The notes under the pieces are model-generated. The model was not told the origin of the DNA, made no database searches, and saw only the letters and a list, made by a program, of their open reading frames with translations. Position numbers and translations under genes: made by a program. Of a DNA stretch of 64,000 nt, positions 1,450 to 59,667 are shown piece by piece. Source of the DNA: a phage. Within the stretch, counting starts at the first letter, position 1. Each line of letters starts with the position of its first letter. The stretch lies in sequence record NC_101837.1. One strand, given 5' to 3'.

Positions 1450-1479
1450 CCAAATAGAAAATCCCCGCCGAAGCGGGGG
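1450..1479 (-). terminator. rho-independent terminator (stem CCCCGC/GCGGGG, UUCG loop on the transcript, U-tract)
   Basis: hairpin 1463-1478 followed on minus strand by AUUUUCUAUUU; lies just after stop of 1491..1871. Confidence 0.5.
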
Positions 1480-1490: not shown

Positions 1491-1871
1491 TTAATCGTAG
1501 TGTGCCAAAATCTCTCCATCGTTGCAAGTTCCCTCTACAAAGTTATGAAGATTCATGCACTCATCTTGATAGAAGAATTTACCGCTTTTCAGCCGTAGGC
1601 CAAACAACTCCGCATCTCCACGATGGCAAGCCTCTACAAGTTCATAGATTTCATACGGCAACTCTCCGTCGTCATGGAAGAACCCAGCCTTATCGTTGAC
1701 ATAGATGAAGAAATAATCACTACTGTCGCAAGCGTCCAATATTTTAAACCAGATTTCATCTACATCTTTTTCTCGGATATCGATCACGCAAGTGGAGCTG
1801 CATTCGTACTCCTTCTCCGGCTCCTCGGTCAATACCACCAGGTAGTTTCCCCGCTTACCTACTTTAGCCAT
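1491..1871 (-). CDS. hypothetical acidic protein
   Basis: ORF track 1491..1919; preferred start ATG 1869-1871 preceded by AAGGGGGG, which avoids a 38-nt overlap with the MoxR gene. Confidence 0.4.
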   Translation of the reverse strand: MAKVGKRGNYLVVLTEEPEKEYECSSTCVIDIREKDVDEIWFKILDACDSSDYFFIYVNDKAGFFHDDGELPYEIYELVEACHRGDAELFGLRLKSGKFFYQDECMNLHNFVEGTCNDGEILAHYD

Positions 1872-1881
1872 ACAACCCCCC

Positions 1882-3066
1882 TTAAGCTTTAGCCAAAATG
1901 GCGCTAAACTCTTCACCAAACTCTTTTACAATCTTCATCAGGTTTGGGTATGCTTTGATCAGCTGAGCAACAATCTTGTCACGCCCTTTACCGATAAGCA
2001 AGGCATTTCCTAAGGCATTAGGTTTCATCATCGCCATAAAGACTGAGAATACAAAATCTCGGTTCTCGTCCTTGAAGTTTTCCCAAAGGAAATCGAGGAA
2101 GTTTGCCACGCAGCTGACAAGATCTTCGTCTGAGATACTTGCATTTTCCATCATATTACGAATAGCGATACAACCTTCAGATCCAAGAATCCACAAAATG
2201 TCTGGCTGCTTAGGACCTACGTATTCTTTGCAGCCACCTGCCATAATCCTACCGATTTCCGGTAAATTGCGTTTCTTGGTGTGGTATGTCCAGATCTCTA
2301 CCGCTGCAGTGTGACCAATAGCACCTTGCAGAAGAACACGGGCCATAGCGTCAGAAATAATACCACTGTCAAAATCGTGCAAGATGTCAGATGCAGCAAC
2401 CCAAGATCGTGGTGTGGCAAAAGATGGACAATTAATCTCAGCCATAGCCTCATAATTATCAATAGCTGATGGAACTCTTTTCAGATACCCAATTACAGAG
2501 GAGTGAACCCCGTTGAGGAATGCGTAGTCCTCAATAAACACCTCTGCATTGCTTGTAACCTCTACAATGATAAAACGGTTAGCCAGAGGGGCTTCGAGCG
2601 CCGAAAGAACCGCACCATCTGTAGAACGGTTACCCGCAGCCACAAAAACAGAACCCTTAGGGAATGCATAGGTGCCGCACTTGTGGTCAAGCATAATTTG
2701 CATTGCAACCTTTTGCAGGTAGTTATCTGCATGAGTGAGCTCATCCAGAAAGATAATTCCGCTCCAGTCAGGATCCGCAGGCCAAAATTCTGGAATTGCA
2801 AACACTGTACGTGTAGTTCCATCCGCTTCTACAGGGATAGGTAGCCCAGATAAGTCGGCAGGATCTTTATCTGACAGTCGCACGTCAACAAGGTTGTCAT
2901 CTCGCTCACCGAACATATTATCAGCGATCTGCTTCATCACCTGGCTTTTACCCACACCCATTGGTCCCAAAATTAGGACAGATCGGCTATGACGTTGGGC
3001 AAACTGAATGATAGCTGGCAACTCACGGACAGTGATTTGACCACTTTCAAATACGTTTCTTGACAT
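1882..3066 (-). CDS. MoxR-like AAA+ ATPase (CobS/RavA-type)
   Basis: 394 aa; Walker A LILGPMGVGKS, Walker B IIFLDELTHA, sensor AAGNRS; start overlaps stop of upstream gene. Confidence 0.65.
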   Translation of the reverse strand: MSRNVFESGQITVRELPAIIQFAQRHSRSVLILGPMGVGKSQVMKQIADNMFGERDDNLVDVRLSDKDPADLSGLPIPVEADGTTRTVFAIPEFWPADPDWSGIIFLDELTHADNYLQKVAMQIMLDHKCGTYAFPKGSVFVAAGNRSTDGAVLSALEAPLANRFIIVEVTSNAEVFIEDYAFLNGVHSSVIGYLKRVPSAIDNYEAMAEINCPSFATPRSWVAASDILHDFDSGIISDAMARVLLQGAIGHTAAVEIWTYHTKKRNLPEIGRIMAGGCKEYVGPKQPDILWILGSEGCIAIRNMMENASISDEDLVSCVANFLDFLWENFKDENRDFVFSVFMAMMKPNALGNALLIGKGRDKIVAQLIKAYPNLMKIVKEFGEEFSAILAKA

Positions 3067-6679: not shown

Positions 6680-6712
6680 TGACAGGGGCCAATGGCCCCT
6701 TCTGGAGTTTTA

Positions 6713-12602: not shown

Positions 12603-12633
12603 AAGAAAGGGGCCGTCTGGCCCCTTTTTATTT
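12603..12633. terminator. bidirectional rho-independent terminator between convergent transcription units
   Basis: stem GGGGCC/GGCCCC 12609-12624 flanked by A-tract on one side and TTTTTATTT on the other. Confidence 0.55.
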
Positions 12634-15600: not shown

Positions 15601-18269
15601 CCTGTAGTTTGGTTAAACCACAGATTGCAAGAGTAATCCCTCATATAGTCATAATCAGAGTATTTGTTTACATCTTCGTTCCAACACATGTTCAGGTTGG
15701 TACCGCCCATGCATACAATATATTCTGCGACATACTTATCACTTCTGGTAGGAATACCTATGAACCATCTGTTAACAGGCTCATCCCAAGCTGTGCGCTC
15801 ATCTTTAACGCAGATAGCAATCCAGTCATGTGTTCCTGTTTTCTTGCACACATCTCGCTTCATACCATAGTAGAACTCTTTAGTATTCGGCTCAGGTGCA
15901 TTTATCAGGTAACTCCATGCCTGATTTGCATAAGTCCCATTGGTGCGCGGATCATGATCAAAGGCATACATGATGATCCTTTCCCCACCAAGATGTTCGC
16001 CAAGAGTAACTTTGACATTCACATCGCCGTAACCGTTGCGAACAACATCCATATTGTCAATAGAGATGCCTCTAGGAGTGTAGGCAATTTTCAGTGAGTT
16101 ATTCTCATTAGCGCCACCAAGAGTGACCCCTATGTTGTTTGTTGTCCCGTCGGCATATCTTACTGTGGCTTCCCAGCGTATTCCGAAATATCCTGCATCA
16201 TGACTAACAATTTTCAGTGTACGAGCACCAGAGTTAGGTTTTCCAGGATCAGGCCAAGGATCTGGATGTTCATGGACAGTCAACGATGTTCCGTTTTGCT
16301 CGTTGACCTGCAACATTTTACCGCCTCTGCCGTTAGGGTTGAACTCCCACAAGGCTTGTGTTTTCACAACATTGTCATACGTAGTACGTCTCTGATCGTA
16401 GATCTCTTGAGTCACATCGTAGGTTACAGACCCGGCATCCATTCTACAGAGTCGTACCATATACGATGTATCGCCTTCTACAGCAGGTTGAGCTGCGTTA
16501 AGCCCGAAGTATACAGTATCGTTGACATGGAACTGTTTGTTTCTACCGACAGTATGCCACTTGCCGTTGGACGGATACGCAGGAACTATGGTGTTCCAGT
16601 TCAAAGTTCTTGTCGTATGGGTTCTGCCTGTGCCATGCTTGTCATGATAGGTTATTTTTACAGAGTACAGGCCACGTCTGTTAACATTTCTGTTATACTG
16701 GGTAACAACAACTTCGTTGGCCCCACCGTGGTTCCAGTTGGTGGAGAATTGGTAATTTGCATCTGTAACAACCGTACCTGCAGCATTTACCAACTCAATC
16801 TTGTCAATAATGAACGTAGCCCCCTCTGGCTGAGGCTTCAATTTCATCTTGACCGTGTCACCAATGTAGATATTGCTAACACTACTAACACCATTAACGT
16901 CGAAAATATCATCAACGCCCCAACTGTCTACTGGGACATTTTTATACCAATTCTCAGGAACCTCTGTGAACCCCTGACTATTAAGTCTGCCGCCAAACAG
17001 GTTATTAGAGCCTGCAAAACTTCCCCTTGGGATGCCTGACCACCAAAGTTTGCCATTAACAACAGTAAAGGTCCCTAAGAAACCTTCTCTGTGGATACCC
17101 TGGAAATAAACACTTTCTGTCCAGCTTACTGGCATCCGTTGCTCGACGTATTTAGCCGTAGCCAGAGCCTGATAGTGAATAAAATTAGCCCTAGGACTGT
17201 TGTTTGCAGATTGTGCACCAATATCATTGCACAGATTGCGAGAGAAGCCACGATACTGTTTGGTGCCATTATTGAAGAAAATGCCACTTGTGCCGTATCC
17301 ACGAGCCATTATCACCTCATGGGTGTAGGTGATATTTAAGGAACGCCATGTGTCATCTCCCCAGACGTCTTGCCCGTAGAATACGTTAACAAGCTGTTGG
17401 TCATCAGGTTTGTGCATCCTTTCTGTGGCTATAATTGCACCATTAGGTCCACACATGAACCCTTTCCATGTCTCGCCCACCGGGATGCCTTTAAACTGGT
17501 CAAGAGTCACATGCTCGGCTGGATAAACTAGTGTGTTTTTGCTGTTATTTCTTAAGAAATCGTAACCTGCAATCCAGAATCCGTTAGGACCACCAAAAAT
17601 AACCGAGTTGTCATGAACTTCACAATTAATTCTTGGATTTTTCCAAGGACCTGTCTCTGGACTTTCAGATGTTTCACCGATCTTAACTGGAGTAGCGTGT
17701 TGACTTTTGTCAACATGAAGAGAGCCGTAAGTATTATTGCCAGAGCCGTACAGGTGAAGCATACCATCAGCCTCTGGTGCAGCAATTACCCACACTGTAT
17801 TGTTTACGCCACCCATTACTTCAACAAGTCTCTCAGGATGGGTGTCCAAATGCAACCCTGTTACGATCTGTTCCGGCAAAGGTGTCCACTCTCTGACACA
17901 AACATCGTTTCCACCTGCTGCCTCCGATCCGATAAGACCAGCTGTGCAACCAATATAGAAAAATTTATTATCGAATGTGCGGATTACAAATGCACGGTCA
18001 GCTCTCCAAACATGGTCTACGTTCCAAGCTGCCTCATTAGGATAGTTTATTGTATCAAGATCTCCAGTCCGACACTCTCCGAACCTATTATAGCCAGTAA
18101 TATTAAGCTGACCATCATCAAAAAGTATAGCTAAGCTATTTACATAGGATACTGTGTTGCTTGTACCATCACTGTTGTCTATTGGGTATGACAGAACAGC
18201 AAGTTCCTTAATTCCACCCCTCTTATCGAGGAAATGACGACCAAGTTTTAGCAAAGGGATTGGAAGCAT
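12642..18269 (-). CDS. giant tail fibre/tailspike-like structural protein (1875 aa)
   Basis: single uninterrupted ORF at distal end of tail-fibre block; Gly/Asn/Trp/Thr-rich composition typical of beta-rich fibre proteins; no catalytic motif confirmed. Confidence 0.45.
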   Translation of the reverse strand: MLPIPLLKLGRHFLDKRGGIKELAVLSYPIDNSDGTSNTVSYVNSLAILFDDGQLNITGYNRFGECRTGDLDTINYPNEAAWNVDHVWRADRAFVIRTFDNKFFYIGCTAGLIGSEAAGGNDVCVREWTPLPEQIVTGLHLDTHPERLVEVMGGVNNTVWVIAAPEADGMLHLYGSGNNTYGSLHVDKSQHATPVKIGETSESPETGPWKNPRINCEVHDNSVIFGGPNGFWIAGYDFLRNNSKNTLVYPAEHVTLDQFKGIPVGETWKGFMCGPNGAIIATERMHKPDDQQLVNVFYGQDVWGDDTWRSLNITYTHEVIMARGYGTSGIFFNNGTKQYRGFSRNLCNDIGAQSANNSPRANFIHYQALATAKYVEQRMPVSWTESVYFQGIHREGFLGTFTVVNGKLWWSGIPRGSFAGSNNLFGGRLNSQGFTEVPENWYKNVPVDSWGVDDIFDVNGVSSVSNIYIGDTVKMKLKPQPEGATFIIDKIELVNAAGTVVTDANYQFSTNWNHGGANEVVVTQYNRNVNRRGLYSVKITYHDKHGTGRTHTTRTLNWNTIVPAYPSNGKWHTVGRNKQFHVNDTVYFGLNAAQPAVEGDTSYMVRLCRMDAGSVTYDVTQEIYDQRRTTYDNVVKTQALWEFNPNGRGGKMLQVNEQNGTSLTVHEHPDPWPDPGKPNSGARTLKIVSHDAGYFGIRWEATVRYADGTTNNIGVTLGGANENNSLKIAYTPRGISIDNMDVVRNGYGDVNVKVTLGEHLGGERIIMYAFDHDPRTNGTYANQAWSYLINAPEPNTKEFYYGMKRDVCKKTGTHDWIAICVKDERTAWDEPVNRWFIGIPTRSDKYVAEYIVCMGGTNLNMCWNEDVNKYSDYDYMRDYSCNLWFNQTTGYPPRQARVNPAIFTDTQVFLTKQANEVQTFKNNYDPNKWFYNCYGAYFWGPAELPDSGSCFEAATYGSDYIMGQVKKYKMIPGPETLGNAVDPYINFAALHANMDGARYPFDVPVANGYRRVVMIIKCDLIGKQVLAENGTSTHPFEVALHYQFADSPYAGDKRISDTDSKRCKKVLLGAGWWWYEFDLTDKFTDDTKTLTGIRLDLGENMHKAVCDGTYGDPTVYLKYVSLEHPEDAVIGPKLKLFGSWIAKDRVGMGKKVRGFLIDAGTEDMLVNAVWPTLEGTAYNNAARSINWFNIHRAMWTTNCYLWRELNDQAFGFSDGRRMAIICWTTLQRCYDHDYEIGGRAWKDIRDRVIYNFADDNGGGAYNFGTSRLIHLNGSSAYKKEGYSGSMIEWGLVKDARVLMGQQLAAAIGPSAVQSAKPAWFDIPLWSSGTPGAAAINPTTGDLEISWEDLKQVGGWDKTGYQVQWWRADGSLAADEFVKDNFYTMSSAKAQQLFGQATPSTITMSMCCKDNRTGALGPRVAKVFSGIKWNLPVQSISWKQIGDNKLLVTPACQFNATLNVDPAVAANSAKASDFSVSNTAMADVRKIDTLNARITCKNTYGTFQIINNFTDADSKVVRTASQTLSLGTLAYAALITEQSATLQGGGVGKSIATPVWKPNEWVVFDLTVDFSSDNNWTWVRNCLSQLMGGPSSVSDSHDSTDPSVFQVGKTHPETGETLPDRKYALVCISYGKADVTFSGTHTYNGTYNFSRKYSLKAGNIIDEVGVLYNPGNGIGIVGGKLQMQEPSITPSNVSGIRKTWESSNTNIATVDATTGLVTFKATGNVTIKFVVRDDAGRKTSSTSFTVRQMAPQWFIWEGNPLDGAYPRPAGTSNMRVFTGPVMNNPTTTTNPTFFGAYIPEIIGLPRNQIQLLFGAGVDGLATFGYSDNIDAARSSGWIGFKFQWNPGGRTLGVASIGVMLPGNQQYHLEAYTNFPS

Positions 18270-18317
18270 TGTGTTCTCCAGATAAGAAAACCGCCCCGTC
18301 AGGAGCGGTTAGATATA

Positions 18318-25534: not shown

Positions 25535-26220
25535 TAACCCTCCTGTCTAGTTGCGTTTACTGTAATACTTTCACAATAAATGGTTGTGGTGTCCCAATCA
25601 GGTCTTACGTCAGGAACATATAGCAAAGTAGCCAGCCCACCAACTCCGAATTGGTTTTCTTCCCACACTGATCCGAAGCCCAGAGCTGTAGAGTCCCCTT
25701 CAAAACCAAAAGCTTGCCCTTGCGATTCCGTAAGACGCAAATGACAAGGCAATGGTAGCATATCTAAGATCTGATCGATAGACTGCAATATGTCAAAGCA
25801 AGTTTTTCTAATATTTATGTCAAACCTGAAGTTGTCTCCTTTCCACGTATCGAAATTGTCTCTTCCGAACAATTGTCGCAAGGTGGAGATGACATCTTCG
25901 CGAGTCCCGCCCCTTGATGCTGCGGCCTGCTGAATAATTAGTGTGGCACGAAAATCAGCATCTGAAAGTCCATTCCTAAGAATACCAAGTTGATTACCAA
26001 CTTCGTCAAGGTATCTTCCGCTGGCATTGTTAAGCAATCTTCCTTCAGCCAAACCTACCAGCATCTTATCAACATCCTCCAACCTTTTAAGGTATACGGT
26101 TAAGAATGTGACTAAATTAACCTTCTCAGCCAGAAAATCTCCAGGTAGGTAGTCAAGACCTCCCTGAACAAAATCTGGCAGAGTGTGGATGTGGTTAACA
26201 TCCGACTTAATCTCTGCCAT
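25534..26220 (-). CDS. baseplate protein (P2 gpI-like position)
   Basis: 228 aa, immediately after the baseplate J-like gene. Confidence 0.35.
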   Translation of the reverse strand: MAEIKSDVNHIHTLPDFVQGGLDYLPGDFLAEKVNLVTFLTVYLKRLEDVDKMLVGLAEGRLLNNASGRYLDEVGNQLGILRNGLSDADFRATLIIQQAAASRGGTREDVISTLRQLFGRDNFDTWKGDNFRFDINIRKTCFDILQSIDQILDMLPLPCHLRLTESQGQAFGFEGDSTALGFGSVWEENQFGVGGLATLLYVPDVRPDWDTTTIYCESITVNATRQEG

Positions 26221-26231
26221 ATCTCGCCGCC

Positions 26232-27722
26232 TTAAATAGTTTGTTGGAAAGTTATATTACTTTCGTCGAGGTCAAACACCTCGGTCATGTTCGCAACAAT
26301 ATCGTTTGTAGTGTAAGCTTCATCAGAAGCCTCTACTGGTTTAACTTGAATTACCAGTCTATTAAATCTACCTATTGACACAGCAGCAGATGCAGCACCT
26401 ACCAATTGGATATTATACAACGTATCTGCAACATCCAGTCCGTTAACAACCTGCAAAAGAGCCTCTACAATGGCATCTTTTTCGGTTGTAGAAAGCGCAG
26501 CACCGGAGTAGGTAATTCTTACATCTAGGCGGTAGGTATTTGCCTTGGAGTAATAAATTCTTTCAGTTTGACCGTCAGATGTAGTGACATCGTAGAAAAT
26601 ATTACCATAAGTCCTGTTCGTACAAGCTATAGTTTGGTAAAGTGCCTGGCAAATGTCCTCCGTTGCACCACCAAACACAACCACTTGGAACTTGTAAGGA
26701 GGTATACCTTTAGCATCAGTTTTATCGGTGTTGTTGGAGAACACTCTCACTTTCTCAACACCTTTCACCTCGCTTACAGCGCTAAGGATTGCAGGACGGG
26801 TAGCCTTAGATGTTAACTGTTTTGTGCTGGAAGCTCTTAAGCGATACTCTGAGTCTTTCTCAACATCCCTGCCCTCATTGAATCTTTCTCTGTTGGTAAG
26901 CTTGATAAATCCACTAGGAGTAGGTGACATTGTTGTCACGGTTTCTGCCTCTCTTGACAGCTCACCAGCCTCGTTAGCGATAACATCCAGTGTGATAGTT
27001 CTTTCCCCTACAATCGGGGATACTCTGAAATCTACCCTGCTGTTAAGTCCAACTTGATCAAGATTCGAATTGTACCCTATCCACAACGTTCCTGTCAACA
27101 TATCGATCTGAATCAAATCGTCGTTCAACAGGGTTGTATTATCGACAATGAATTGCTTAATCTCTCCGTAAAAGCTTGGCAAATCAGAAGAGTCCAGAGA
27201 CTTATCTGTTAAAACCAGGCTTTTTGTTTTGATACTTCCATCTGTCTGGTTGGTAATTTGGAAGTTGTATTTCCCAATCCTTAGGTCTGGAGCATTTATT
27301 CTGTGAGCAATAAGATTCCCTGCTACTTGCACATCGTTGCTAAGAACAAAGTTGCCACTGTCTAGCGTATAAGTTTTGGAATCATAAATCATATTGTACG
27401 GCACAGTTGTGTTGATTGTCAACTGGCAGGTACCTGATGATTTAGAACGGCCTCTTCGGTAAATACCCTGTCTTCCAAGAAGCTCATCCAGGTAAATACC
27501 TTCTGCCCCATACAGCGTCTGTGATGCGTATACAGATGCTGCCATAAGAATAAGTTGATACTCTCGCTCGTTGAAAATAGTGGTCAGCTTATCTGCAACG
27601 GAGTTACTTTGTACGTTGAAGTTTTCGCCAAAAGCACGGATCAGGCTTTGCTTAGTTTCAACGATTAGGTCATTTAGGGTTGGTATAACGAAACCAGCCT
27701 CTGTCAATCCATACTTAGCCAC
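26232..27722 (-). CDS. baseplate J-like protein
   Basis: 496 aa; N-terminal region (...GAEGIYLDELLGRQGIYRRGR...) resembles the Baseplate_J family. Confidence 0.5.
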   Translation of the reverse strand: MAKYGLTEAGFVIPTLNDLIVETKQSLIRAFGENFNVQSNSVADKLTTIFNEREYQLILMAASVYASQTLYGAEGIYLDELLGRQGIYRRGRSKSSGTCQLTINTTVPYNMIYDSKTYTLDSGNFVLSNDVQVAGNLIAHRINAPDLRIGKYNFQITNQTDGSIKTKSLVLTDKSLDSSDLPSFYGEIKQFIVDNTTLLNDDLIQIDMLTGTLWIGYNSNLDQVGLNSRVDFRVSPIVGERTITLDVIANEAGELSREAETVTTMSPTPSGFIKLTNRERFNEGRDVEKDSEYRLRASSTKQLTSKATRPAILSAVSEVKGVEKVRVFSNNTDKTDAKGIPPYKFQVVVFGGATEDICQALYQTIACTNRTYGNIFYDVTTSDGQTERIYYSKANTYRLDVRITYSGAALSTTEKDAIVEALLQVVNGLDVADTLYNIQLVGAASAAVSIGRFNRLVIQVKPVEASDEAYTTNDIVANMTEVFDLDESNITFQQTI

Positions 27723-27789
27723 GTCACTCCTCCGGTATGAAAATCTCTACAAGGTATTTTACCAAATTTTGTAACAATAGTCAATCTGA

Positions 27790-27819
27790 GCATAAAAATA
27801 AACCCCGCCGAAGCGGGGC
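27790..27819 (-). terminator. rho-independent terminator (same CCCCGC/GCGGGG UUCG hairpin as at 1463)
   Basis: hairpin 27803-27818, minus-strand U-tract UUUAUUUUUAU, just after stop of 27828..31427. Confidence 0.5.
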
Positions 27820-27827
27820 TTTAAAGG

Positions 27828-30800
27828 TTAGTCGTGAGACTCGTTCCAAGGTCCCTGGAAGCTAGAGTTTGAACGACTTACTATCACAGTAGGACAGGAG
27901 ATTGTGACACCTGTCACGCTCGACGTTGACCACGGTGTGTAAATCTCGATAACAATGTCTATAGTTTGTTCACCCAGACCTGTTATCCCTACCGCACACA
28001 TGCCGTTGTTGTCGTTAAAATACTTCTTGCCAGCAAGGATCTGATGACCAGCTATCCATGCATTCAGTTGGGAGCTGGCAAGAGTACCATTCAGTTTAAA
28101 GAAGAATGTTACGTTCTTACCCTGACCTGAAACGTTATCTACGTATCTCCACCTCCAACGGCAAACCCTTTGCTGGGAGTTATATACTGGAGCACAATCT
28201 CCGTAAGTCCTGTGTGCAACAATCGCACCTTCGAACTGGTTAGCACGGATAACAGAAGCTTCTACACGACCACGGAAGGTACCTCCGGTTGCATCTATGG
28301 TGCCTCTAAAGCTACCATTATTGGCATAAACATCACCACGGAAGGTACCACTGGTGGCGTTAACTGCCCCTGTGAAGTTACCAGAACTGGCGTTGATGTT
28401 GCCTTTCACCCACACATCCATAAATTGGGCGTGCCCGTTCTTGTTAATGTACCAACCGTATTTATGGTACCCGTTGCCATCGTAGTTGTTTGACGAAATT
28501 TCTTGTGCGATCTTGGCAGAGGAGATCGTGCCATTCTCTATAAAAGCGTCTTTCAAGAACGCTTGGTTGTTCTTGATTGCGAAAGCAAGGGTTGCTGTTC
28601 CATTTCCAGGGTTGTATACCGCAAAATTGTTTGCACTAACCATGAAGTAGGATTGAACTTGTCCTCCAGACCCCTCCATGCCCAGCTGGATACCTGCAAC
28701 ATACTTATTCCCTGCAGAGTCTACCTGAATCTTAGCTCCCCACTGAGCATCTATTTTACCCTCAAGTGTTGTTACAGCTTTAGAGGTATTAGATACTGTA
28801 GCCCTGAGCTCATCAATATTACCCATTTCGTCAACAATTTCTTGTTTTGCAGAGGTAAGTTCTTGACGGATCGCTGTGGCTGTATTATTAACAAGATCAA
28901 CTGTTGTACTATTAGTTTCTTGAATAGATGCTTGCAGATTGGCAACCTCTTTCTGCACATCATCTTCCAGCTTGGTGATCTTCCCTGTAGCTGCCACCAG
29001 ATCCTGCTTAATAGCTTCCGTTGTCTTATTTAGCAGATCGGTTGTTGCCTTGTTGGTTTCTTGAATAGAGGAGTTAAGTTTGCTCTCAGTGTTCTTCAAC
29101 TCTTCCCGCAGAGTACCTTGAGTTGCAGTTATTTGCTCACTCAATGCTTGAGTTTTACGATTAACAAGATCAACGGTTGATCTATTTGTTGTCTCGATTA
29201 GTGACCCAAGCCTACCAGACTCTGCTGCAAGTTTATCGTCAAAGGATTGCTGAGCTGCTACCAGCTTACTGTTAAGGGCAGAAATTTCTCCATTAACCCC
29301 TGTAAATTTTTCTGTCGTCTCTCTGACAACACCCTCTATTGTATCCCCAAGCTCTTCAAAAATGCTAGTAACACGGTCATTGACTGCACCAACATTTTTA
29401 TCCATTTCCTTGACTGCATTATCGAGATTGGCGGTAAGCTCTTTATAAGTCTCTGTCTTTTTGAACTCAGCATCAATCTGTGGCATAAGATCTTCTATAG
29501 ATGTGTAACAGTGGGCTGCACACTCCACAAAAGCAGATGAACCAAAAGCATTTGTTGTCCTGATATACCAATAATAAATCTTATCGTTCTGCAGACCTTC
29601 AGATGTCCAAGTTGAACCAACACCCATACGAGTGGCTTTTGAAGTAACGGTTGCATCACTGGTATCTGGCAATCTTGTCATCCCAGATGTCCAAAAGTCA
29701 TATTGGGTGCTTACACTGGCCAAGTCTCTGCTGTGCGGGATCAGGGTAATAGCAAAGTATCCCTGTTTAACTTCTACAGAAACCGGAGCCTCAGGTGCCT
29801 GAATGTTAAACTCACAGTATGCTTCTGGAGATACACCACCTTTATAAGATGTTGCAACAACAGTGGCTGTGTAGGAACCTTTAGTCAGACCTTCAACACG
29901 GACAAACTGCTCAACTGTCTGCGCTGTCCAGACAATCTCTCCGTTTTTCCTGACCTGCACAATGTTTTGAGCATAAGTCCCAACGTTGTCCCAAGCCAAA
30001 ACACCGTGAGTTACTTCTCCAGCTTGGAGAACGGAATATCTGAAGTTTTGCGGTTGAGCTACACCAGATGGAGATATCGGAATATCTACATCGCCAGAAT
30101 CCGGAAGTTGCCCTGTGGCATCATTCCACTCTTTAGCATCTTGACGAAGTTTTACCTTGACACCCCCCTTTTTGGTAAACTCCCATTCAAGAACTCTCAT
30201 TTCTTGGCCCACTATACCAATACTTGGGAGGTCCATTGTAACGTAACGACCAGGTTTAAATTTGAAACCTCGCATATTGCAGGTGACTTCAATAATCCTG
30301 CCAGCTCTGGCACGTCTTAGGAAGATTGCAGAAACACGCTGAGCTTGATAAGGGCTGGTAACAAAGCGATAATCTATATCGATTATCTTTCTTTCTCCAT
30401 CCTTCTCTACCCACTCTGGGACAAACACTGATGGAAAATCTGTTTCAGAATACCCTTTGGTCGGACTAGTGAATCTGCCAGTTATTGTGTTGGATCTTTT
30501 GTCAAATGAGGCTTCCGGATAGATCTTGACCTCACCACAGACACAATCCTCACTCAGTGTCATTGTTGCCGGGCCATAGTATGCACCAACCAACAAACCA
30601 TACTTACCAGCTACATAACTAAGATCTGCACCGCAAGCTTTCAGCATTTCTGCCATAATACTTGCTGGGGCCTCATCCATGTCAAACTCACCGTTAATGG
30701 TGTAACGGCGCTCACTGGTTCCGTCTGCGTTTTTTACCGCCTCGTCGCATATGTTGGCAGCCTCCTTGAAGGACTCCCAGTTGATGGTTTCGTCAGGACA

Positions 30801-31427
30801 TTTAAGGTACGTTCTTAAATAGTCTAGGATCACCAAGGCAGCGTTATTGGTATACACCTCTTTACTGATACGAGGATCATAGCATTTTTTACCAACCTTG
30901 ACGAGTGTAACGTTTGGCAACCCAAAAGGAAACTTGTCAGGGTCAAACCTGAAGCTGGCACGTAGCCAACTGATCCCTCTACCTATCATGTCAGGTGACC
31001 ATGATGGGCAGTGTGTGCCCATGAAAGGATCAGATGTTTTTCTGTCGTTATGTAGCTCCCACGATACCAAATCCCCATACGAGGAAATAGGATTACCGTC
31101 GATAAGTATATCTTCTACACCTTCCAGAGGGTGATTGGCAAGAACAATAGCACAGTGGAGAGTTCTGTCTCTATCCTGCTCCAAAAACGCAAGCAATCCG
31201 GATGTGCGTGTCTTCCCATACACTACAGAGCAAGGTGCAGCAGAAGATCTGAGAAGCTTTTGTCTATCTTGCTGACTTCTGTAAGATTTGTTGCCCTCAA
31301 AAATCTTATCCAGAGTTCTGGTGGTAACAGTGTTCAGGCTGTCAGCCAGAGCTGCCTTGGATGCGTTCCAGTCATAACTTGAAGATCTTGCAGAAGCAAC
31401 GATGTTATCAATCATTGCAATTGGCAT
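27828..31427 (-). CDS. large tail/host-specificity-like protein (1199 aa) with central coiled-coil repeats
   Basis: N-terminal ~400 aa globular, long heptad-like Thr/Asn/Leu-rich segment, C-terminal Gly/Asn-rich region. Confidence 0.4.
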   Translation of the reverse strand: MPIAMIDNIVASARSSSYDWNASKAALADSLNTVTTRTLDKIFEGNKSYRSQQDRQKLLRSSAAPCSVVYGKTRTSGLLAFLEQDRDRTLHCAIVLANHPLEGVEDILIDGNPISSYGDLVSWELHNDRKTSDPFMGTHCPSWSPDMIGRGISWLRASFRFDPDKFPFGLPNVTLVKVGKKCYDPRISKEVYTNNAALVILDYLRTYLKCPDETINWESFKEAANICDEAVKNADGTSERRYTINGEFDMDEAPASIMAEMLKACGADLSYVAGKYGLLVGAYYGPATMTLSEDCVCGEVKIYPEASFDKRSNTITGRFTSPTKGYSETDFPSVFVPEWVEKDGERKIIDIDYRFVTSPYQAQRVSAIFLRRARAGRIIEVTCNMRGFKFKPGRYVTMDLPSIGIVGQEMRVLEWEFTKKGGVKVKLRQDAKEWNDATGQLPDSGDVDIPISPSGVAQPQNFRYSVLQAGEVTHGVLAWDNVGTYAQNIVQVRKNGEIVWTAQTVEQFVRVEGLTKGSYTATVVATSYKGGVSPEAYCEFNIQAPEAPVSVEVKQGYFAITLIPHSRDLASVSTQYDFWTSGMTRLPDTSDATVTSKATRMGVGSTWTSEGLQNDKIYYWYIRTTNAFGSSAFVECAAHCYTSIEDLMPQIDAEFKKTETYKELTANLDNAVKEMDKNVGAVNDRVTSIFEELGDTIEGVVRETTEKFTGVNGEISALNSKLVAAQQSFDDKLAAESGRLGSLIETTNRSTVDLVNRKTQALSEQITATQGTLREELKNTESKLNSSIQETNKATTDLLNKTTEAIKQDLVAATGKITKLEDDVQKEVANLQASIQETNSTTVDLVNNTATAIRQELTSAKQEIVDEMGNIDELRATVSNTSKAVTTLEGKIDAQWGAKIQVDSAGNKYVAGIQLGMEGSGGQVQSYFMVSANNFAVYNPGNGTATLAFAIKNNQAFLKDAFIENGTISSAKIAQEISSNNYDGNGYHKYGWYINKNGHAQFMDVWVKGNINASSGNFTGAVNATSGTFRGDVYANNGSFRGTIDATGGTFRGRVEASVIRANQFEGAIVAHRTYGDCAPVYNSQQRVCRWRWRYVDNVSGQGKNVTFFFKLNGTLASSQLNAWIAGHQILAGKKYFNDNNGMCAVGITGLGEQTIDIVIEIYTPWSTSSVTGVTISCPTVIVSRSNSSFQGPWNESHD

Positions 31428-31864
31428 TAATACCTCCAGACATCAACAACGATAGAATCTTTCATGTCGAACATAAAGACCCCTTTATCACCTTTCGCCC
31501 AAATCTGGTTGTTCCAGAACACACCAGCGGTGAGCCCGTTCAGACCTTCGAAAATGACAATATCTCCACGCTGAACCTGTTTAGGAGTATCCAGCCGAGT
31601 CAGAAAGAGATCAAAAATAGTAGGCAGGTGTGTGGTTTTGAAACGAAGCATGCACCATCTTTTGCTTTCCAACTCTGTTTTATACGTTCCTTCGAAGTTA
31701 GAAAGAAAATCTGTTCCGTATTGGGCATCAACACACTTAGCTGCAAAGGTGCAACAATCGTGGAATCCCCATTCAAAAGGTATGGTGGCCTCTTCGTCAA
31801 ATACTTTCCACAATCTTTCTTGCCAGTCCACTAGACGAGGATGTGTGCTCATTAAACCTCCCAA
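31427..31864 (-). CDS. tail/baseplate assembly protein
   Basis: 145-aa ORF translationally coupled to the 1199-aa gene. Confidence 0.3.
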   Translation of the reverse strand: MGGLMSTHPRLVDWQERLWKVFDEEATIPFEWGFHDCCTFAAKCVDAQYGTDFLSNFEGTYKTELESKRWCMLRFKTTHLPTIFDLFLTRLDTPKQVQRGDIVIFEGLNGLTAGVFWNNQIWAKGDKGVFMFDMKDSIVVDVWRY

Positions 31865-32418
31865 ATGATCGGGCGGCTCGCCACCTGATCCACATATTTA
31901 AAAAATCTGTCATTATCGTTTCTTGAGCTGTGGCTTTCCTCCGTGTACCGATAAGGAAAACCTCTTAACCAACTGTTGAAGATGGAAGAGATGGATATGG
32001 ACAAAGCACTATTCTCCCCTGTCTGAATAGCCATATCTGTTATAAGGCCGTCAAACAAGCCATTAGTTGTGACAGGCAGACCATTCTCCATAGCGGTAAT
32101 GTACAACGTGGCACGACAACCGGAATACTCCGTCTTCAGAAGATCACCCACATACTTAGGATCAAACCCGTTCAATGTCGCTACCACAGATCCGAAGTTG
32201 GTGGCATCTTTCTCAGACACAGCAGTTAACGTTGCTGATCCACCTATCCCTATAAAATGTTGCCCCTCAATTACTACAACACCAGTGCCTGAGCACACCC
32301 TGACAGTTCCTGTCGGTAGCTCCAGCTTTGCAGCAATTAAGATCTCAACACCATCAAGCTCCAGCTTTTCAAGAAATAAATTATCTAATGGCGCTCTGAT
32401 CATCTTAGAAATCCTCAA
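31852..32418 (-). CDS. tail/baseplate protein
   Basis: 188-aa ORF in structural operon. Confidence 0.3.
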   Translation of the reverse strand: MRISKMIRAPLDNLFLEKLELDGVEILIAAKLELPTGTVRVCSGTGVVVIEGQHFIGIGGSATLTAVSEKDATNFGSVVATLNGFDPKYVGDLLKTEYSGCRATLYITAMENGLPVTTNGLFDGLITDMAIQTGENSALSISISSIFNSWLRGFPYRYTEESHSSRNDNDRFFKYVDQVASRPIIWEV

Positions 32419-32995
32419 AGAGGTTGATAACTATATTATCACCTTTTTGCATAGCATCGACTTTTTGCTTAATTTTATGAATATCTCTGATATGAAACCT
32501 ACCCTTCGGGGATTGAGTTATTATCTTCATAGTGTCCCCTGCGGCAATAGGTTTTCTAAGTCTTGGAGATATGCTTATAACAGCAGCCCCAACACCATCG
32601 CTGCGCACTGGAGCTGTTACCACTTTCAACTCATCATTGACAGATATTTTATCGCCAGCTCTAGCTATGTCTCTGTTTGGCTCCCACCCAACCGTCTTCA
32701 AAAAATCGTCGTTACCAGTAGGCCCCAGGGCGATTGGCTCATTAGCTGTTACTGAGTGACCGTAAGTTTTAATAAGAAAGATGTTTCCATCTTTATACAC
32801 CTGATCAACAAAGCTCTTAAGCTCTAACAACTGTGACTCGCTGATATTGGAAACCGTCAAAGTGCCTTTCCAATTAGGTGTGGCATAGGTTACTTTTTGC
32901 GTTTTACCTGTAAACGGACTTTTAAACGTAACAATATCTGCCAGCAGCTCCAATCTAATATCTGGAAGGTATCTAGGCCTTTCCCATAAAAACAT
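32405..32995 (-). CDS. tail/baseplate protein
   Basis: 196-aa ORF in structural operon. Confidence 0.3.
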   Translation of the reverse strand: MFLWERPRYLPDIRLELLADIVTFKSPFTGKTQKVTYATPNWKGTLTVSNISESQLLELKSFVDQVYKDGNIFLIKTYGHSVTANEPIALGPTGNDDFLKTVGWEPNRDIARAGDKISVNDELKVVTAPVRSDGVGAAVISISPRLRKPIAAGDTMKIITQSPKGRFHIRDIHKIKQKVDAMQKGDNIVINLFEDF

Positions 32996-33054
32996 TGTGC
33001 CTCCGGGTTAAACAATCATGATAGTTATTTTACCAGATTTTGAGTTAATACGCA

Positions 33055-33087
33055 ATACAAACAAAAAGCCCCCGCCGAAGCGAGGGC
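33055..33087 (-). terminator. rho-independent terminator (variant of the same UUCG hairpin)
   Basis: hairpin 33068-33087 with one G-U pair on the transcript, followed by UUUUUGUUUGU. Confidence 0.45.
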
Positions 33088-33094
33088 AAAACAG

Positions 33095-36000
33095 TTACTT
33101 CAATTTCTCTTGCAACCCAGTAACAACCTCTGTCAATTTTTTAACCTGCTCCTCAAGGGCGGTTATTTTATCATCCTGTTCCCTGCAAACCTGGACAAGC
33201 AAGCCTGTTACAGCTGCGTAATCCACGCTGTAGAATCTTTCCTCTGTTATCAAAGGAGTTCCATCTTGATCAGGGTTTGGGATTTCCTTTCTTTGCACGA
33301 AAGAGCTAACCGCTTCCGGCAGAGCTTCAAGCACTTCTTGTGCTATAACACCTGCATAAGGCATACCGTTCTCTTTAAGAGTGTAAGTATAACCCTTCAT
33401 CTTCCGGATAGCTTCTAACGCATCAGGAATAACAGCTATGTTATCTTTCAGGTCTCTGTCAGAACTCTGATTGACAGATGTGCAATTCACAGCGCCGTTT
33501 ACAGAAAGATATCTTGATTTATCCGGCAAGGTACCGCAATGCCATACCCAATTTGATTGAGACTCGTCAAGAACCTTAAACTCTAACACGTTTGGACGAT
33601 CTCCTGTGCTGCCGTTACCCCAATAATACATATGGGCGGCATTAGCAGGCATGTTGCCACCGTTATTAGTAACATGGCTTCCAGAAATATACACCTTTAA
33701 CTCTGGGGTTGGTATTTCCCCTTCTGGGGTTGTTCCTCCATACCTGAAGCTAACACCATTACCACCTGTTTGGGTCCACGGGCCCCAAGTGAAGACCTGT
33801 TTCACCATATTCCCATAACGTGTGAATCTATCGCCATGGTAGGTAATATACTCTTGAACACACCCATTACCGTTATTGGCGTTATTTTGCAACACAATAA
33901 GTGTTCCGGCCTCATTTACGGGATAATGACGATCATATGTTGCATCATTATTTGCAGGCTGATGGTAAATACCTTCCCACAATCCGTGATAGGTGTTAAG
34001 GTCTGAAGAACCAAGACCTTGACCCCTGTGTTGCATGGCCTTATTCCAGGGATGGTGATTACCACCTTCTATAGACCTGGTGTATAAGTTACTTTGTCTG
34101 CCAGCAATCTGGAAAGCGTAGTTTCCCGAGAATCCTACAGATAACCCGCCTACAACCATGGTATCTTGTGGGCCGTTAACATTACCAGCTATTATTTTTG
34201 ACGGGTTGTTAGGCCCAAACTGGTTGTTCCAGTCTGCACCCGTGTGGCATACAAAACCGCCCGGAGCTGAGAAAGTGCCATCTTTGTTGAAGTTGTAGAA
34301 TCTATGAGCTGTGCCTACAACATCACGAACAATAACTTGAGCAGCTTCTGGAGTAGATCTGAACTCTGCCTGACCTTGGAGACCAGCACCATTACCGCAT
34401 TTAGAGGTAAACGTACCGTTAGTCAGATCACCTGTCCCATCTGATGCACACTGGAATCCTGCATTAGAGAATAACGCCTTTCTAGGACTGCCGTAGCACA
34501 AATAGTCAAGACCGTCTGCCCATAGCTCGACTTTTGGCATATTCATTTTGCTCATCACAGCATAGCGTTCAGCAGTGCCTATATAGTGCCACTGTGTGCC
34601 GCCACCAGTGTAGAACCCTGAAGTACCTTTGAAGTCAACAATAGGTCTGGTATTGGTGTTATTATCTCCAAGAATAGCAAGATTCAAATCTGCTGACTGA
34701 AGAGGTGCAACGAACTTAACCCCATCCTGATTGTCTGTTACAGCCCCAACCTGGTAATCTTGCTCTCTGGTAAACACTTCGACAACATTTCTACTTGCGT
34801 ATATGCTGACAGGGAAAGCACGAGCCTCCACATAGAAAGCAACATACTCTTGTTTACCCCTTGTTGGAGCAATCATCCCAAGAAGTGCTTTTTCATTCTG
34901 GTAGAAATTTACTACCCCGTAGAAAGAGTCTCCCCTGTCCGTCCAGCCGCCAGTTCTATAGTGACACTGCAGGGTGGCACAGTTCATAGGGTCATTTCCA
35001 GATGAAGACCTGGTGACTATAGTAATATCTGTACCTGTCGAAGGGGCGTAATACGGATCTGTTCTAACGATGATTGGGTAGTATTTCCCATCTTCCATCC
35101 CTGCGGTTCTTGGCAGTGTTAAGAAGTCTTTTACACCTGCTGCTATAGGAACTTTGAACAGATTCTGAGCATCTGCTAAAGTTGTAGCCCCAGTACCACC
35201 TGCGGCTTGAGGTAAAGGTTCCCACTTGGCCTTCCGGTTGTTATAAACACCCCATTCCAGAGTGCCGTTACCGGATTCGTCCATTCCTCCATCCCAGACC
35301 ACCATCTTGGCGGCTTTCTTGGACCCCCAAAAGCCTCTTTCTGCTCCTGAACTACGGATCCATTCTCCAAGTCCCCAGTTTGTCAGCTGACCAGTAAGAT
35401 CCCCAACCTGCATATATTTAGGGCAGTCTAATACGCCGTCTTCGCGGAAACCTAAATATCTGTGAGTTTCAGATCCTTTTGCACCTTTGTGCAGGTGGAT
35501 TGTCAACCAAGCCTTATTGTCGTTTCTTACCTCAGAATAGATCCTATATCCATGCTCAAGGACACCGTCAGCGCTGTATTTGTCCCCGTTAACAATACCC
35601 GAGGCTGACTTAACATCAGCAGAACTTTGAGACAGGTAAATGTGCCCGAAGGTAGGGGTATTTCTAGGCCCAAGACCGATGTGCGCTCTAAAGGTATCAT
35701 CGTTACGAGGTCTGACCATCGGCTGCCATGCAGTCCACTGGTTTGTGTTGGCCTGATAGGTTCTCAAATACCAAACATCTACGTTAGAGAATGGGTAGTA
35801 TTCCTGACGACAACCTGTACCGCCGTTAGCATTGTTCTGCCAAACAATCAAGTGACCAGCACCAGAACCTGCAGGGTAACCATTTGCCTCAGTTGCATAA
35901 GCAGTCATCGGCTGGTAGTATACACCATCCTGATTACCAGTCAAGTTATTGATATTGAAATTTGGCTCAAGGGCTGCACGTTGCTTATAGAAAGCCCCGA

Positions 36001-36907
36001 TATTGATACGGACTCCAGCGGCATCTCTGGCCCCTGTACCGCCTTGCTCTATAGCAAGAGGTTGCCACGAGGCTGTTTGTTGGTTCCACATACCCCAACG
36101 GCCTGTTGCGTCAAGCTGCAAGTACCCTGCCGTGTTTAAATCATCTCCAGCACGGATAACTGTTCTTGTTGGGTTGTTTGCCTCCAGGCGTTTAAATTCA
36201 TCACGAAGTGCTATTCTTTTTGTTGTTGCTACACCGTTGGTTACTGCGATGGTATACATGGCTCCGGATGTAGCGCCACGGAAAATACCATCAACAGTTG
36301 TAGTATCACGACGAGATACCACACCGTTCAGAAATTTTTCACCAGCTGCTACAGAAGGGTAGTTGGTGGTTCTTCCCTCTTCAATAACTGCAGGACCCAC
36401 AAAGTTATCAAGGTGAATAACATCACCTACAGTGTGCACCGTACCAAAATCTACACGCTGTGCAAGTGCTTTAGCATCGTTAGCTGTCTGAACAGTAACA
36501 TCCATTACATCCTGGACAGACTGCCCTTCGGCTGTCATGATCATAGATGCGCCAATGGTAGATTCCAGCTCCTCCCTTAGGGACGGGTCAGTATATACCA
36601 TCCATGCAGCGTCAGTAATCCCACCATCTGAGTACGGTGAAGATAGTGCAGGAACAGTGTGTGGAAATTCGCCTTTCCAACGCAGGTAGAGATCTTCCTC
36701 TTCGAAATAGGCAAAATCCATTGGGCCGTTTAACTTACCACCTTCCTTAAAGGAGATTACATGAGAAACAGTCCCATCCACATGGACAACATCGCCAATT
36801 TTTACACGACGGGTCAGGTCTGGTTGTTGAACAACCAGGTAATCATCCTCTGTCACTGCGGTAGTGGCAGGAAGAGATTCAATTCTGACAACTTTAATAT
36901 CAGCCAT
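33095..36907 (-). CDS. tail fibre with C-terminal self-cleaving intramolecular chaperone (peptidase S74-like) domain
   Basis: 1270 aa; C-terminal SDRDLKDNIAVIP...GVIAQEVLEALPEAV matches the S74 chaperone motif; N-terminal ~100 aa similar to 39542..40210. Confidence 0.6.
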   Translation of the reverse strand: MADIKVVRIESLPATTAVTEDDYLVVQQPDLTRRVKIGDVVHVDGTVSHVISFKEGGKLNGPMDFAYFEEEDLYLRWKGEFPHTVPALSSPYSDGGITDAAWMVYTDPSLREELESTIGASMIMTAEGQSVQDVMDVTVQTANDAKALAQRVDFGTVHTVGDVIHLDNFVGPAVIEEGRTTNYPSVAAGEKFLNGVVSRRDTTTVDGIFRGATSGAMYTIAVTNGVATTKRIALRDEFKRLEANNPTRTVIRAGDDLNTAGYLQLDATGRWGMWNQQTASWQPLAIEQGGTGARDAAGVRINIGAFYKQRAALEPNFNINNLTGNQDGVYYQPMTAYATEANGYPAGSGAGHLIVWQNNANGGTGCRQEYYPFSNVDVWYLRTYQANTNQWTAWQPMVRPRNDDTFRAHIGLGPRNTPTFGHIYLSQSSADVKSASGIVNGDKYSADGVLEHGYRIYSEVRNDNKAWLTIHLHKGAKGSETHRYLGFREDGVLDCPKYMQVGDLTGQLTNWGLGEWIRSSGAERGFWGSKKAAKMVVWDGGMDESGNGTLEWGVYNNRKAKWEPLPQAAGGTGATTLADAQNLFKVPIAAGVKDFLTLPRTAGMEDGKYYPIIVRTDPYYAPSTGTDITIVTRSSSGNDPMNCATLQCHYRTGGWTDRGDSFYGVVNFYQNEKALLGMIAPTRGKQEYVAFYVEARAFPVSIYASRNVVEVFTREQDYQVGAVTDNQDGVKFVAPLQSADLNLAILGDNNTNTRPIVDFKGTSGFYTGGGTQWHYIGTAERYAVMSKMNMPKVELWADGLDYLCYGSPRKALFSNAGFQCASDGTGDLTNGTFTSKCGNGAGLQGQAEFRSTPEAAQVIVRDVVGTAHRFYNFNKDGTFSAPGGFVCHTGADWNNQFGPNNPSKIIAGNVNGPQDTMVVGGLSVGFSGNYAFQIAGRQSNLYTRSIEGGNHHPWNKAMQHRGQGLGSSDLNTYHGLWEGIYHQPANNDATYDRHYPVNEAGTLIVLQNNANNGNGCVQEYITYHGDRFTRYGNMVKQVFTWGPWTQTGGNGVSFRYGGTTPEGEIPTPELKVYISGSHVTNNGGNMPANAAHMYYWGNGSTGDRPNVLEFKVLDESQSNWVWHCGTLPDKSRYLSVNGAVNCTSVNQSSDRDLKDNIAVIPDALEAIRKMKGYTYTLKENGMPYAGVIAQEVLEALPEAVSSFVQRKEIPNPDQDGTPLITEERFYSVDYAAVTGLLVQVCREQDDKITALEEQVKKLTEVVTGLQEKLK

Positions 36908-46348: not shown

Positions 46349-46402
46349 GGTTTCCTCATAATAAAAAGGGCCAGATCCCAGAAAAGGAATCCGGCCCTTA
46401 GA

Positions 46403-47136: not shown

Positions 47137-47240
47137 TTTATAGCATCCTTATTAGTCATGTTGTGCACCATATTTGTGTATTTTACCATGATTATGGTGC
47201 ATTGTCAATTTAACCTTTCAAGCAATTCAAGAACGTGTGT

Positions 47241-47280
47241 CAAAACCATAAAAGCAAAAAGCCTCACCCGAAGGTGAGGC
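47241..47280 (-). terminator. rho-independent terminator after tail tube gene
   Basis: stem GCCUCACC/GGUGAGGC with UUCG loop 47261-47280, U-tract UUUUUGCUUUU. Confidence 0.55.
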
Positions 47281-47298
47281 TTATGCTAAAGTGTGCCC

Positions 47299-47772
47299 TT
47301 AGATAATACCTGCAAGACCTGCGAGGCCAGTAAGAGCACCAGTGATGTTATCACGGTTGAGCCATGCATCCAGAATACCGATATCCCAGTCCAGCTGACC
47401 TACTTCGGTTCCGTAAGTCAGGTCAGGCTGTTTCTGGATCCAACCAATTGTGGAAATACCAGGACCCTGGCTACCTTCCAGCAGAACTGGGAAGAATACC
47501 AGACCAGTAATCGATGCCTGTTTCTGCCAGTCAGAAAGGTAAGCGTTCCATACAGAAGTGTTCTGCAAAGATACAGTCATAACACCAGATTGGTTACGAG
47601 ACAGGGCCGCAGACATTTCGCCATCCACACCAACGTGAGGGTAGATGTTGTCTTCGTTTCTTGAAACAACGATCTTGGTGTCAGCAGCGAAGCCAGTGAC
47701 ACGCTGCTGCATCAGGTACAGTTTGACCTTTTTAGGGTCATACGCATAAGGAGTTAAAATTTGAGTTTCCAT
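47299..47772 (-). CDS. tail tube protein
   Basis: 157 aa, between sheath-size gene and chaperones, followed by strong terminator. Confidence 0.45.
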   Translation of the reverse strand: METQILTPYAYDPKKVKLYLMQQRVTGFAADTKIVVSRNEDNIYPHVGVDGEMSAALSRNQSGVMTVSLQNTSVWNAYLSDWQKQASITGLVFFPVLLEGSQGPGISTIGWIQKQPDLTYGTEVGQLDWDIGILDAWLNRDNITGALTGLAGLAGII

Positions 47773-50217: not shown

Positions 50218-50694
50218 TTATTTTTGCTGTCCAATTTTAAAGGTTGCAGATTCCAGCAGCACATCGTAATGCCGCATAGCCTCGTTGAAGCCCTTCTCTT
50301 GTGCCCACTGCTCACTAACAGTAGGGTTACTAAACTGACCAGCCTCAATAACAAACTGGATAGCTTTGGCCCCTGTGTCCCCCATCTGCTTAAGAATAGC
50401 CTCTGCACTTGATCCTCTAGCCATAGCTCTCAACAATTTTTCTGTCAAGGTCTGTAGTTGAGTGCTGTGAAATGCAAAAGCTGTCTCCATGAAATTGCGA
50501 ACAGGCAGCCCGTTCCAACCGAAGTTGTGAATGGCTGCCAATGTTGCCATATTTAAGCCTGACGGGTGAGGTTCGTCATAAAAGCCGTAGGTTATTGTTT
50601 TACTTTCAAGTCTCACAAGTTCTTTGTAGAAGCGATCTAAACGCTTTAGGTTGAACCTTGTTTGACATTTAACCTTTAGCATTATATCCCTCAC
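50218..50694 (-). CDS. neck/head completion protein
   Basis: 158-aa ORF. Confidence 0.3.
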   Translation of the reverse strand: MRDIMLKVKCQTRFNLKRLDRFYKELVRLESKTITYGFYDEPHPSGLNMATLAAIHNFGWNGLPVRNFMETAFAFHSTQLQTLTEKLLRAMARGSSAEAILKQMGDTGAKAIQFVIEAGQFSNPTVSEQWAQEKGFNEAMRHYDVLLESATFKIGQQK

Positions 50695-50735
50695 TAATGT
50701 ATTTTACCACAAAGATACATCAAAAGCAACAATTT

Positions 50736-52261: not shown

Positions 52262-52280
52262 GGGACACTCCTGTTAAACC

Positions 52281-52317
52281 CTAATAAATAAAAAGGGGAG
52301 GGGAGAACCCCCTCCCC
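52281..52317 (-). terminator. strong rho-independent terminator after putative capsid gene
   Basis: 9-bp GC stem GGGGAGGGG/CCCCUCCCC 52295-52317 then UUUUUAUUUAUU. Confidence 0.55.
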
Positions 52318-56840: not shown

Positions 56841-56878
56841 TCAAAACAGTATAACAAAATAGCCCTCGTCAGAGGGCT
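56841..56878 (-). terminator. terminator-like hairpin between terminase and portal genes
   Basis: stem AGCCCUC/GAGGGCU 56861-56878 then AUUUUGUUAUACUGUUUUG. Confidence 0.35.
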
Positions 56879-56928
56879 AGTATCTCCAATTACTTTATTG
56901 TACCACATCTAATTAAGATTGGCAACAC

Positions 56929-59656: not shown

Positions 59657-59667
59657 TATTTACTATT

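Follow-up and report, generated by a model that had tools for sequence, protein, structure and literature searches.

Hairpins with a UUCG loop after minus-strand genes of a vequintavirus are probably ordinary intrinsic terminators

Four UUCG-loop hairpins, at about 1.4, 27.8, 33.0 and 47.3 kb of a phage sequence of 64,000 nucleotides (NC_101837.1, hereafter the window), are most probably Rho-independent terminators for the host E. coli RNA polymerase on minus-strand phage transcripts. Judging by their sequence, we give this reading a probability of roughly 0.88. The terminators are not new, since they are found in the paper describing phage rV5 or in GenBank records. We regard them as real and ordinary hairpins, already predicted or annotated, which look functional and very probably are. 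The window comes from a Vequintavirus, an rV5-like E. coli myovirus with 122 related records. Phage MaxTheCat is 98.7% identical to it over positions 26000-34000, and a 301-nt stretch spanning the 27.8 kb site matches APECc02, MaxTheCat and others at 100% identity. The minus strand carries the genes from 12.6 to 59.5 kb, and the hairpins are hence read on that strand. Gene names were taken from the MaxTheCat annotation and from PHROG matches. About 17-21 phage records that share more than 94% identity with this E. coli vequintavirus carry the label 'Campylobacter phage' (host C. jejuni), probably through mislabelling or because they derive from contaminating coliphages.

The original prediction had reported hairpins at 1463-1478, 27803-27818, 33068-33087 and 47261-47280, and all of its sequences and coordinates are correct, on the minus strand. 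The 1.4 kb hairpin, CCCCGC-UUCG-GCGGGG (1463..1478, minus; t003 of rV5), stands 12 nt past the stop of ORF 1491..1919 (minus), which encodes a small protein of unknown function and lies upstream of a cluster of cell-wall hydrolase, rIIA and rIIB; the interrupted U-tract AUUUUCUAUUU (1452..1462, minus) follows the hairpin. At 27.8 kb the same 16-mer (27818..27803) forms the core of a stem that can be extended to 9 pairs, AAGCCCCGC-UUCG-GCGGGGUUU (27800..27821, minus), located 6 nt past the stop of a 1199-aa lateral tail fibre with a fibronectin type III domain (ORF 27828..31427, minus). Here the first three U of the U-tract UUUAUUUUUAU (27792..27802, minus) can pair with the upstream A/G. The 33.0 kb hairpin, GCCCUCGC-UUCG-GCGGGGGC (33068..33087, minus; t041 of rV5), contains one G·U pair, lies 7 nt past the stop of a 1270-aa lateral tail fibre (ORF 33095..36907, minus) and precedes the U-tract UUUUUGUUUG (33058..33067, minus). 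Finally, AAGCCUCACC-UUCG-GGUGAGGCUU at 47.3 kb (47259..47282, minus; t052 of rV5) is found 16 nt past the stop of the tail tube protein (ORF 47299..47772, minus), with the U-tract UUUGCUUUUA (47249..47258, minus) on its 3' side.

All four hairpins are intergenic and in sense orientation, 6-16 nt past minus-strand stop codons. Their stems, in the order 1.4, 27.8, 33.0 and 47.3 kb, have 6, 9, 8 and 10 pairs, of which 6-7 are G-C, and their loops are of 4 nt. The closing pair is C-G in every case, and the loop context is CC-UUCG-GG at 47.3 kb and GC-UUCG-GC at the other three sites. The U-rich tails begin 0-2 nt from the stem and contain at least 5 T in 8 nt, in interrupted tracts. A G+C-rich stem, a U-tract and an intergenic sense position past a stop codon, which characterize intrinsic terminators, are hence present at all four sites, as is the C(UUCG)G tetraloop. 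The bare hairpins have folding energies of -12.0, -12.0, -15.7 and -17.6 kcal/mol, respectively (z-scores of -3.1 to -6.2). Since the U-tracts are interrupted (for example AUUUUCUAUUU at 1.4 kb), termination efficiency may be modest. We rejected the possibility that the terminators are bidirectional: read on the plus strand, they have a CGAA loop and poor tails (CTTTAAAGG at 27.8 kb, for instance), and terminator scans gave no plus-strand call at the four sites. An Rfam scan of the window at gathering scores returned only five tRNA matches (59.6-60.4 kb) and none at the hairpins. These five support calls in a tRNA cluster (59580-60392, minus) in which ARAGORN identifies Pro, Met(CAT), Thr, Ser, Tyr and Arg tRNAs, together with an odd 99-nt call with a 4-base anticodon (59825-59923); in the MaxTheCat record the CAT tRNA is labelled Ile and a 97-nt tRNA is labelled 'Lys'.

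The proposed mechanism is the classical one. Once the polymerase has passed the stop codon, the nascent RNA would fold into a short G+C stem with an exceptionally stable C(UUCG)G cap, and the weak rU:dA hybrid of the U-tract would lie in the active site as the hairpin forms, causing the elongation complex to dissociate. The hairpin left at the 3' end should then shield the upstream mRNA from 3'-5' exonucleases. We infer actual termination, its efficiency and the mRNA-stabilising role from the sequence anatomy; a literature search found no experimental 3'-end mapping, in vitro termination or transcriptomics for any vequintavirus. All entries for these terminators, in rV5 as in the sequence records, are predictions. 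Three of the four sites are listed in Table S4 of the rV5 paper (Kropinski et al. 2013, Virol J 10:76), as t003 (CCCCGCTTCGGCGGGG-ATTTTCTATTT), t041 (GCCCTCGCTTCGGCGGGGGC) and t052 (GCCTCACCTTCGGGTGGGGC). These are orthologous to the sites in the window and identical or nearly identical in sequence, the t052 orthologue having a U·G pair in rV5 and U-A in the window. Among the terminators of that table the loop is UUCG in 5 of 20 and UCCG in one; the table also gives the promoters that come after the terminators (P036, P040 and P051), and the paper reports a MEME motif, TggTAaAAtA, upstream of late genes. The 27.8 kb site is absent from the table, which results from the authors' stringent pipeline, and the shared UUCG loop has no mention in the passages and tables of the paper drawn on here. 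In the Murica record (KT001917), 'terminator' features are present at the orthologues of both the 27.8 kb and 33.0 kb sites, and the 27.8 kb terminator is also annotated in HdK5 and EdH4.

The identification of these elements as terminators was upheld not only by their having every sequence feature of the intrinsic type, in sense and behind stop codons, but also by the conservation of an orthologous position in other genera. Distant relatives were taken from an annotated phage collection by tblastn; a search for related loci in IMG/VR with the baseplate protein yielded only 3 loci, which were near-identical. The baseplate proteins of 4MG, KpS8 and POP18 are 49-60% identical to that of the window. 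In these three other genera a terminator lies at the same position, before the baseplate wedge gene, but its stem, fully paired in each, is entirely different: AAGGGGC-UUCG-GCCCCUU in 4MG, AACCACCC-UCCG-GGGUGGUU in KpS8 and AAAGGGAGCC-UCU-GGCUCCCUUU in POP18. Behind each of the three terminators come a TATG(A/G)TAAAATA promoter motif and a ribosome-binding site. That the position is kept with different stems supports a function. Furthermore, the tape-measure gene has a UNCG-capped terminator behind it both in the window and in all four of the other genera compared. Hairpin sequences scarcely vary within the genus, and the rare changes preserve pairing, as with U-A versus U·G at 47.3 kb, or an extra G in the 5' arm with a matching extra C in the 3' arm at a terminator at 44.0 kb. 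The loop reads UCCG instead of UUCG at 33.0 kb in one contig, and UUAG at 27.8 kb in one metagenomic relative, which implies that the exact loop is not indispensable.

Long late transcripts had been proposed to be punctuated by these hairpins, and for the structural genes this holds: at three of the four UUCG sites (27.8, 33.0 and 47.3 kb) the late-type promoter motif TGGTAAAATA follows within approximately 20-55 nt. The motif occurs 4 times in the window against 0.22 expected. The first of these promoter-like sequences is TTGACT-17-TAAAAT with TGGTAAAATA as extended -10 (27756..27784, minus; rV5 P036), which would drive the baseplate wedge gene (26232..27722). The second, TTGCGT-17-TAAAAT with TGGTAAAATA (33026..33055, minus; rV5 P040), would drive a four-gene operon (32995..27828) that ends at the 27.8 kb terminator, and the third, TTGACA-17-TAAAAT with TGGTAAAATA (47180..47208, minus; rV5 P051), the tail assembly chaperone gene. 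The 44.0 kb terminator is likewise followed by an extended -10 promoter. At 27.8, 33.0 and 47.3 kb one structural-gene transcript would thus close and the next would start afresh at its own promoter. The fourth exact copy of TGGTAAAATA (50700-50709, minus; rV5 P056) is found upstream of ORF 50218..50694, and no strong terminator comes before it.

At four strong terminators, among them the UUCG site at 1.4 kb, the layout is different. The terminators 1478..1463, 18310..18289, 46399..46366 and 52317..52295 leave no room for a promoter, and the next start codon lies within approximately 20-35 nt of them (at 1.4, 18.3, 46.4 and 52.3 kb, respectively). At 1.4 kb the U-tract abuts a GGAG ribosome-binding site, after which the cell-wall hydrolase gene starts with GTG (1442). 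The stretches from terminator to start codon cover 1442-1478, 18269-18310, 46348-46399 and 52261-52317 (minus). Because a promoter has no room before the next gene, we infer from this anatomy that termination is partial or leaky at these sites; the cell-wall hydrolase, a 1875-aa fibre, the tape measure and the gene that follows the major capsid protein must, on the same anatomy, depend on read-through. The leaky 1.4 kb terminator would act as an attenuator lowering downstream expression and, more generally, the terminators at 1.4, 18.3, 46.4 and 52.3 kb would be attenuators that set expression ratios. Two classes of terminators can hence be proposed: full stops, which have a promoter behind them, and leaky attenuators, after which the next gene comes at once. 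The distinction is relevant to engineering tail-fibre swaps in these phages. A further arrangement is seen at the terminase-portal terminator (region 56860-56925, minus), where the promoter-like extended -10 sequence TTGCCA-17-TGGTACAAT (rV5 'P064') lies upstream of the hairpin UAGCCCUC-UGAC-GAGGGCUA (56879..56860, minus). Transcripts from P064 would start only about 10-15 nt before this hairpin, which points to a promoter-proximal attenuator or to a 5' stem-loop that would protect the portal mRNA.

The expected read-through also bears on whether the hairpins terminate transcription to any extent, or are mainly stabilisers of mRNA at 3' ends or processing sites that block PNPase and RNase II with little true termination. 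We consider the latter improbable. UUCG hairpins are exceptionally stable, and read-through must be substantial where several terminators leave no promoter room before the next gene, but a U-tract, which would be superfluous for a pure stability element, follows every hairpin, and a T-tract is likewise present at 82% of the listed unrelated occurrences of the 16-mer. The presence of a dedicated promoter after three of the four UUCG sites also argues for termination. Stabilisation and termination are, moreover, not exclusive.

The resemblance between the 27.8 and 33.0 kb stretches, which have the same layout of hairpin, TGGTAAAATA promoter and CCGGAGG ribosome-binding site and bracket a 5.2 kb tail-fibre operon, could also suggest that terminator and promoter form paralogous mobile cassettes similar to PeSL, copied within the genome and serving as recombination junctions for tail-fibre modules. 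The PeSL (promoter-early stem-loop) regulatory cassettes of T4-type phages were reportedly described by Arbiol et al. in 2010. As in PeSL, a stem-loop terminator stands beside a sigma70-type promoter and is repeated in intergenic regions flanking variable genes; unlike in PeSL, the repeats of the window have only short functional motifs in common, lie in the structural (late) region, and most breakpoints are elsewhere. The two intergenic stretches do align significantly, with a score of 44 against 14.7 ± 2.3 for shuffles, but their similarity is confined to the hairpin and a 20-nt promoter motif, CAAAAT-TGGTAAAATA-CT, with exact common runs of only 13 and 10 nt; the remainder of the 5'UTR shares only the SD-like CCGGAGG, with a marginal score reached by 74 of 2000 shuffles. 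The promoter part is missing from the 1.4 kb copy, and the 16-mer is a generic one, shared by phages and bacteria that are unrelated. The extended homology beyond functional motifs that marks PeSL-type elements is hence found neither between 27.8 and 33.0 kb nor at 1.4 kb, where the hairpin alone is in common.

Homology breaks speak on both sides of this question. One falls exactly at 33092, the edge between the stop of the 1270-aa fibre and the terminator, in a metagenomic relative (IMGVR_UViG_3300010279_000001), and another at 47231 in JEP1, between the tube terminator and the P051 promoter. Among 9 relatives, a small sample, breaks were seen at roughly a dozen positions, only these 2 being at a cassette and the others inside genes. 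Most mosaic breakpoints occur at about 28.8-29.4 kb and 33.5-34.1 kb, inside the fibre genes, and at least 112 of 122 relatives retain the operon that the cassettes enclose. We therefore find it very unlikely that these are mobile cassettes copied within the genome. A related idea is that, in Vequintavirinae, the conserved terminator + TG-n-TAAAATA cassettes flanking tail-fibre and baseplate operons might additionally be, by analogy with PeSL, preferred junctions of homologous recombination for the exchange of tail-fibre (host-range) modules; this would fit the breaks at 33092 and 47231 in two relatives, and we hold it as a long shot. Intrinsic termination on minus-strand transcripts remains our preferred reading.

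The abundance of such hairpins in the window was assessed with our own scanner for strong sites (a perfect stem with 5 or more pairs, 4 or more G-C pairs, dG of -12 or lower, and 5 or more T in 8 nt). It found 11 hairpins with a T-tract, all on the minus strand and none on the plus strand, versus 0.7 ± 0.8 on both strands together in 40 dinucleotide shuffles. Ten of the 11 lie 3-25 nt past the stop of a minus-strand ORF; the remaining one, a palindromic hairpin (6700..6684), belongs to a region of plus-strand genes. The loop is UUCG in 4 of the 11 and UCCG in one more. A lenient terminator scan barely exceeded shuffles in two of three segments, and only the strong class is clearly enriched. 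The 14-nt core CCCGCCGAAGCGGG, allowing up to 2 mismatches, has 3 matches versus 0.08 expected, a number reached in none of 100 shuffles. Nothing specific, beyond the sequence being an inverted repeat in DNA too, speaks for the view that the hairpins arose as inverted repeats by chance, or act as a signal in DNA (a cruciform or protein-binding site), with no role in RNA. This view is effectively refuted by the strict sense orientation of the asymmetric UUCG loop and U-tract and by these shuffle controls (3 core matches versus 0.08 and 11 strong sites versus 0.7), while other genera keep the position though their stems differ.

Two other kinds of hairpin were observed in the window. A second recurring terminator loop type occurs at 12606-12627, 18289-18310 and 56860-56879 (minus). 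It is C(UGAC)G in two cases, closed once by C-G and once by C-G next to U-A, and C(AGAC)G in one, which reads AAAC in rV5 and MaxTheCat; we know of no recognised class of stable tetraloops that includes C(UGAC)G or C(AGAC)G. The palindromic G+C hairpin at 6684-6700, AGGGGCCAATGGCCCCT, has a weak T-tail in the sense direction of the plus-strand gene region, and lies between the stop of an Srd-like anti-sigma factor (6679) and the probable start of a metallopeptidase gene (ATG 6713, after GGAG).

Other parts of the original prediction fared less well. Placement after highly expressed genes stands for the tail tube, but not for the two lateral tail-fibre sites nor for the non-structural 1.4 kb site. 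The major-capsid terminator (52317..52295) has another hairpin, whose loop is not UUCG. The late-transcript setting also fails at 1.4 kb: this site is outside the late structural region, the gene before it is non-structural, and its surroundings are those of a cell-wall hydrolase, rIIA and rIIB.

The hairpins had further been taken for a reused module. Our results do not bear this out, as only the hairpin itself, 13-16 nt long, is common to the three similar sites, whose flanks are unrelated and do not align, and as the 16-mer is generic. The 1.4 kb copy has the hairpin alone in common with the others and lacks any promoter part. A search of the complete MaxTheCat genome revealed two copies of the 16-mer and three of CGCTTCGGCG, every one of them in sense and at an orthologue of a window site. 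In contrast, the exact 16-mer is found in at least 120 unrelated viral contigs of IMG/VR, and in unrelated viral contigs a T-tract follows it in 102 of the 125 listed occurrences (82%), with unrelated flanks. The 16-mer followed by TTT is also present in at least 120 bacterial genome stretches, the bacteria including Pseudomonas, Rhizobium, Synechococcus, Corynebacterium, Clostridiales, Bacteroidetes and Erwinia, and the hairpin behind the tape-measure gene of phAPEC8, a phage of another subfamily, reads CUCGC-UUCG-GCGGGG. Because the 16-mer is generic in unrelated viruses and bacteria, has been engineered independently and lies between unrelated flanks, convergence on a thermodynamic optimum, not copying, is the best explanation for stems so nearly identical, as far as sequence comparison can tell. 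A UUCG loop closed by C-G on a G/C stem of 5-7 bp would be a small sequence space, reached repeatedly by selection and by engineers.

In practical terms, our results support the transcript boundaries of the structural region in a well-sequenced group of therapeutic and biocontrol phages, and have little import beyond annotation quality. They also indicate that evolution has repeatedly arrived, in nature, at the very hairpin that engineers chose for a synthetic terminator. A widely used synthetic terminator, cgcaaaaaaCCCCGCTTCGGCGGGGttttttcgc, which we take to be iGEM part BBa_B1002, and an 'in-house designed' one, ccccgcttcggcggggttttttt, contain exactly the same 16-nt hairpin as the phage. 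The synthetic terminators have perfect A- and T-tracts, whereas the U-tracts of the phage copies are interrupted and their A-tract is absent or partial; as a consequence, the phage copies are probably one-directional and weaker than the synthetic ones. The classical source on C(UUCG)G hairpins, with their exceptional stability and their occurrence in intergenic regions of phage T4, is said to be the work of Tuerk et al. in 1988, and intrinsic terminators of E. coli were reportedly treated by d'Aubenton Carafa et al. in 1990. The UUCG terminators of T4 and E. coli and those of the window share a G+C stem closed by C-G, a UUCG loop, a U-tract and a location after genes, and the loop is over-represented among terminators, as in 4 of the 11 strong sites of the window. 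There is no difference in kind between them, and the window adds a different phage lineage.
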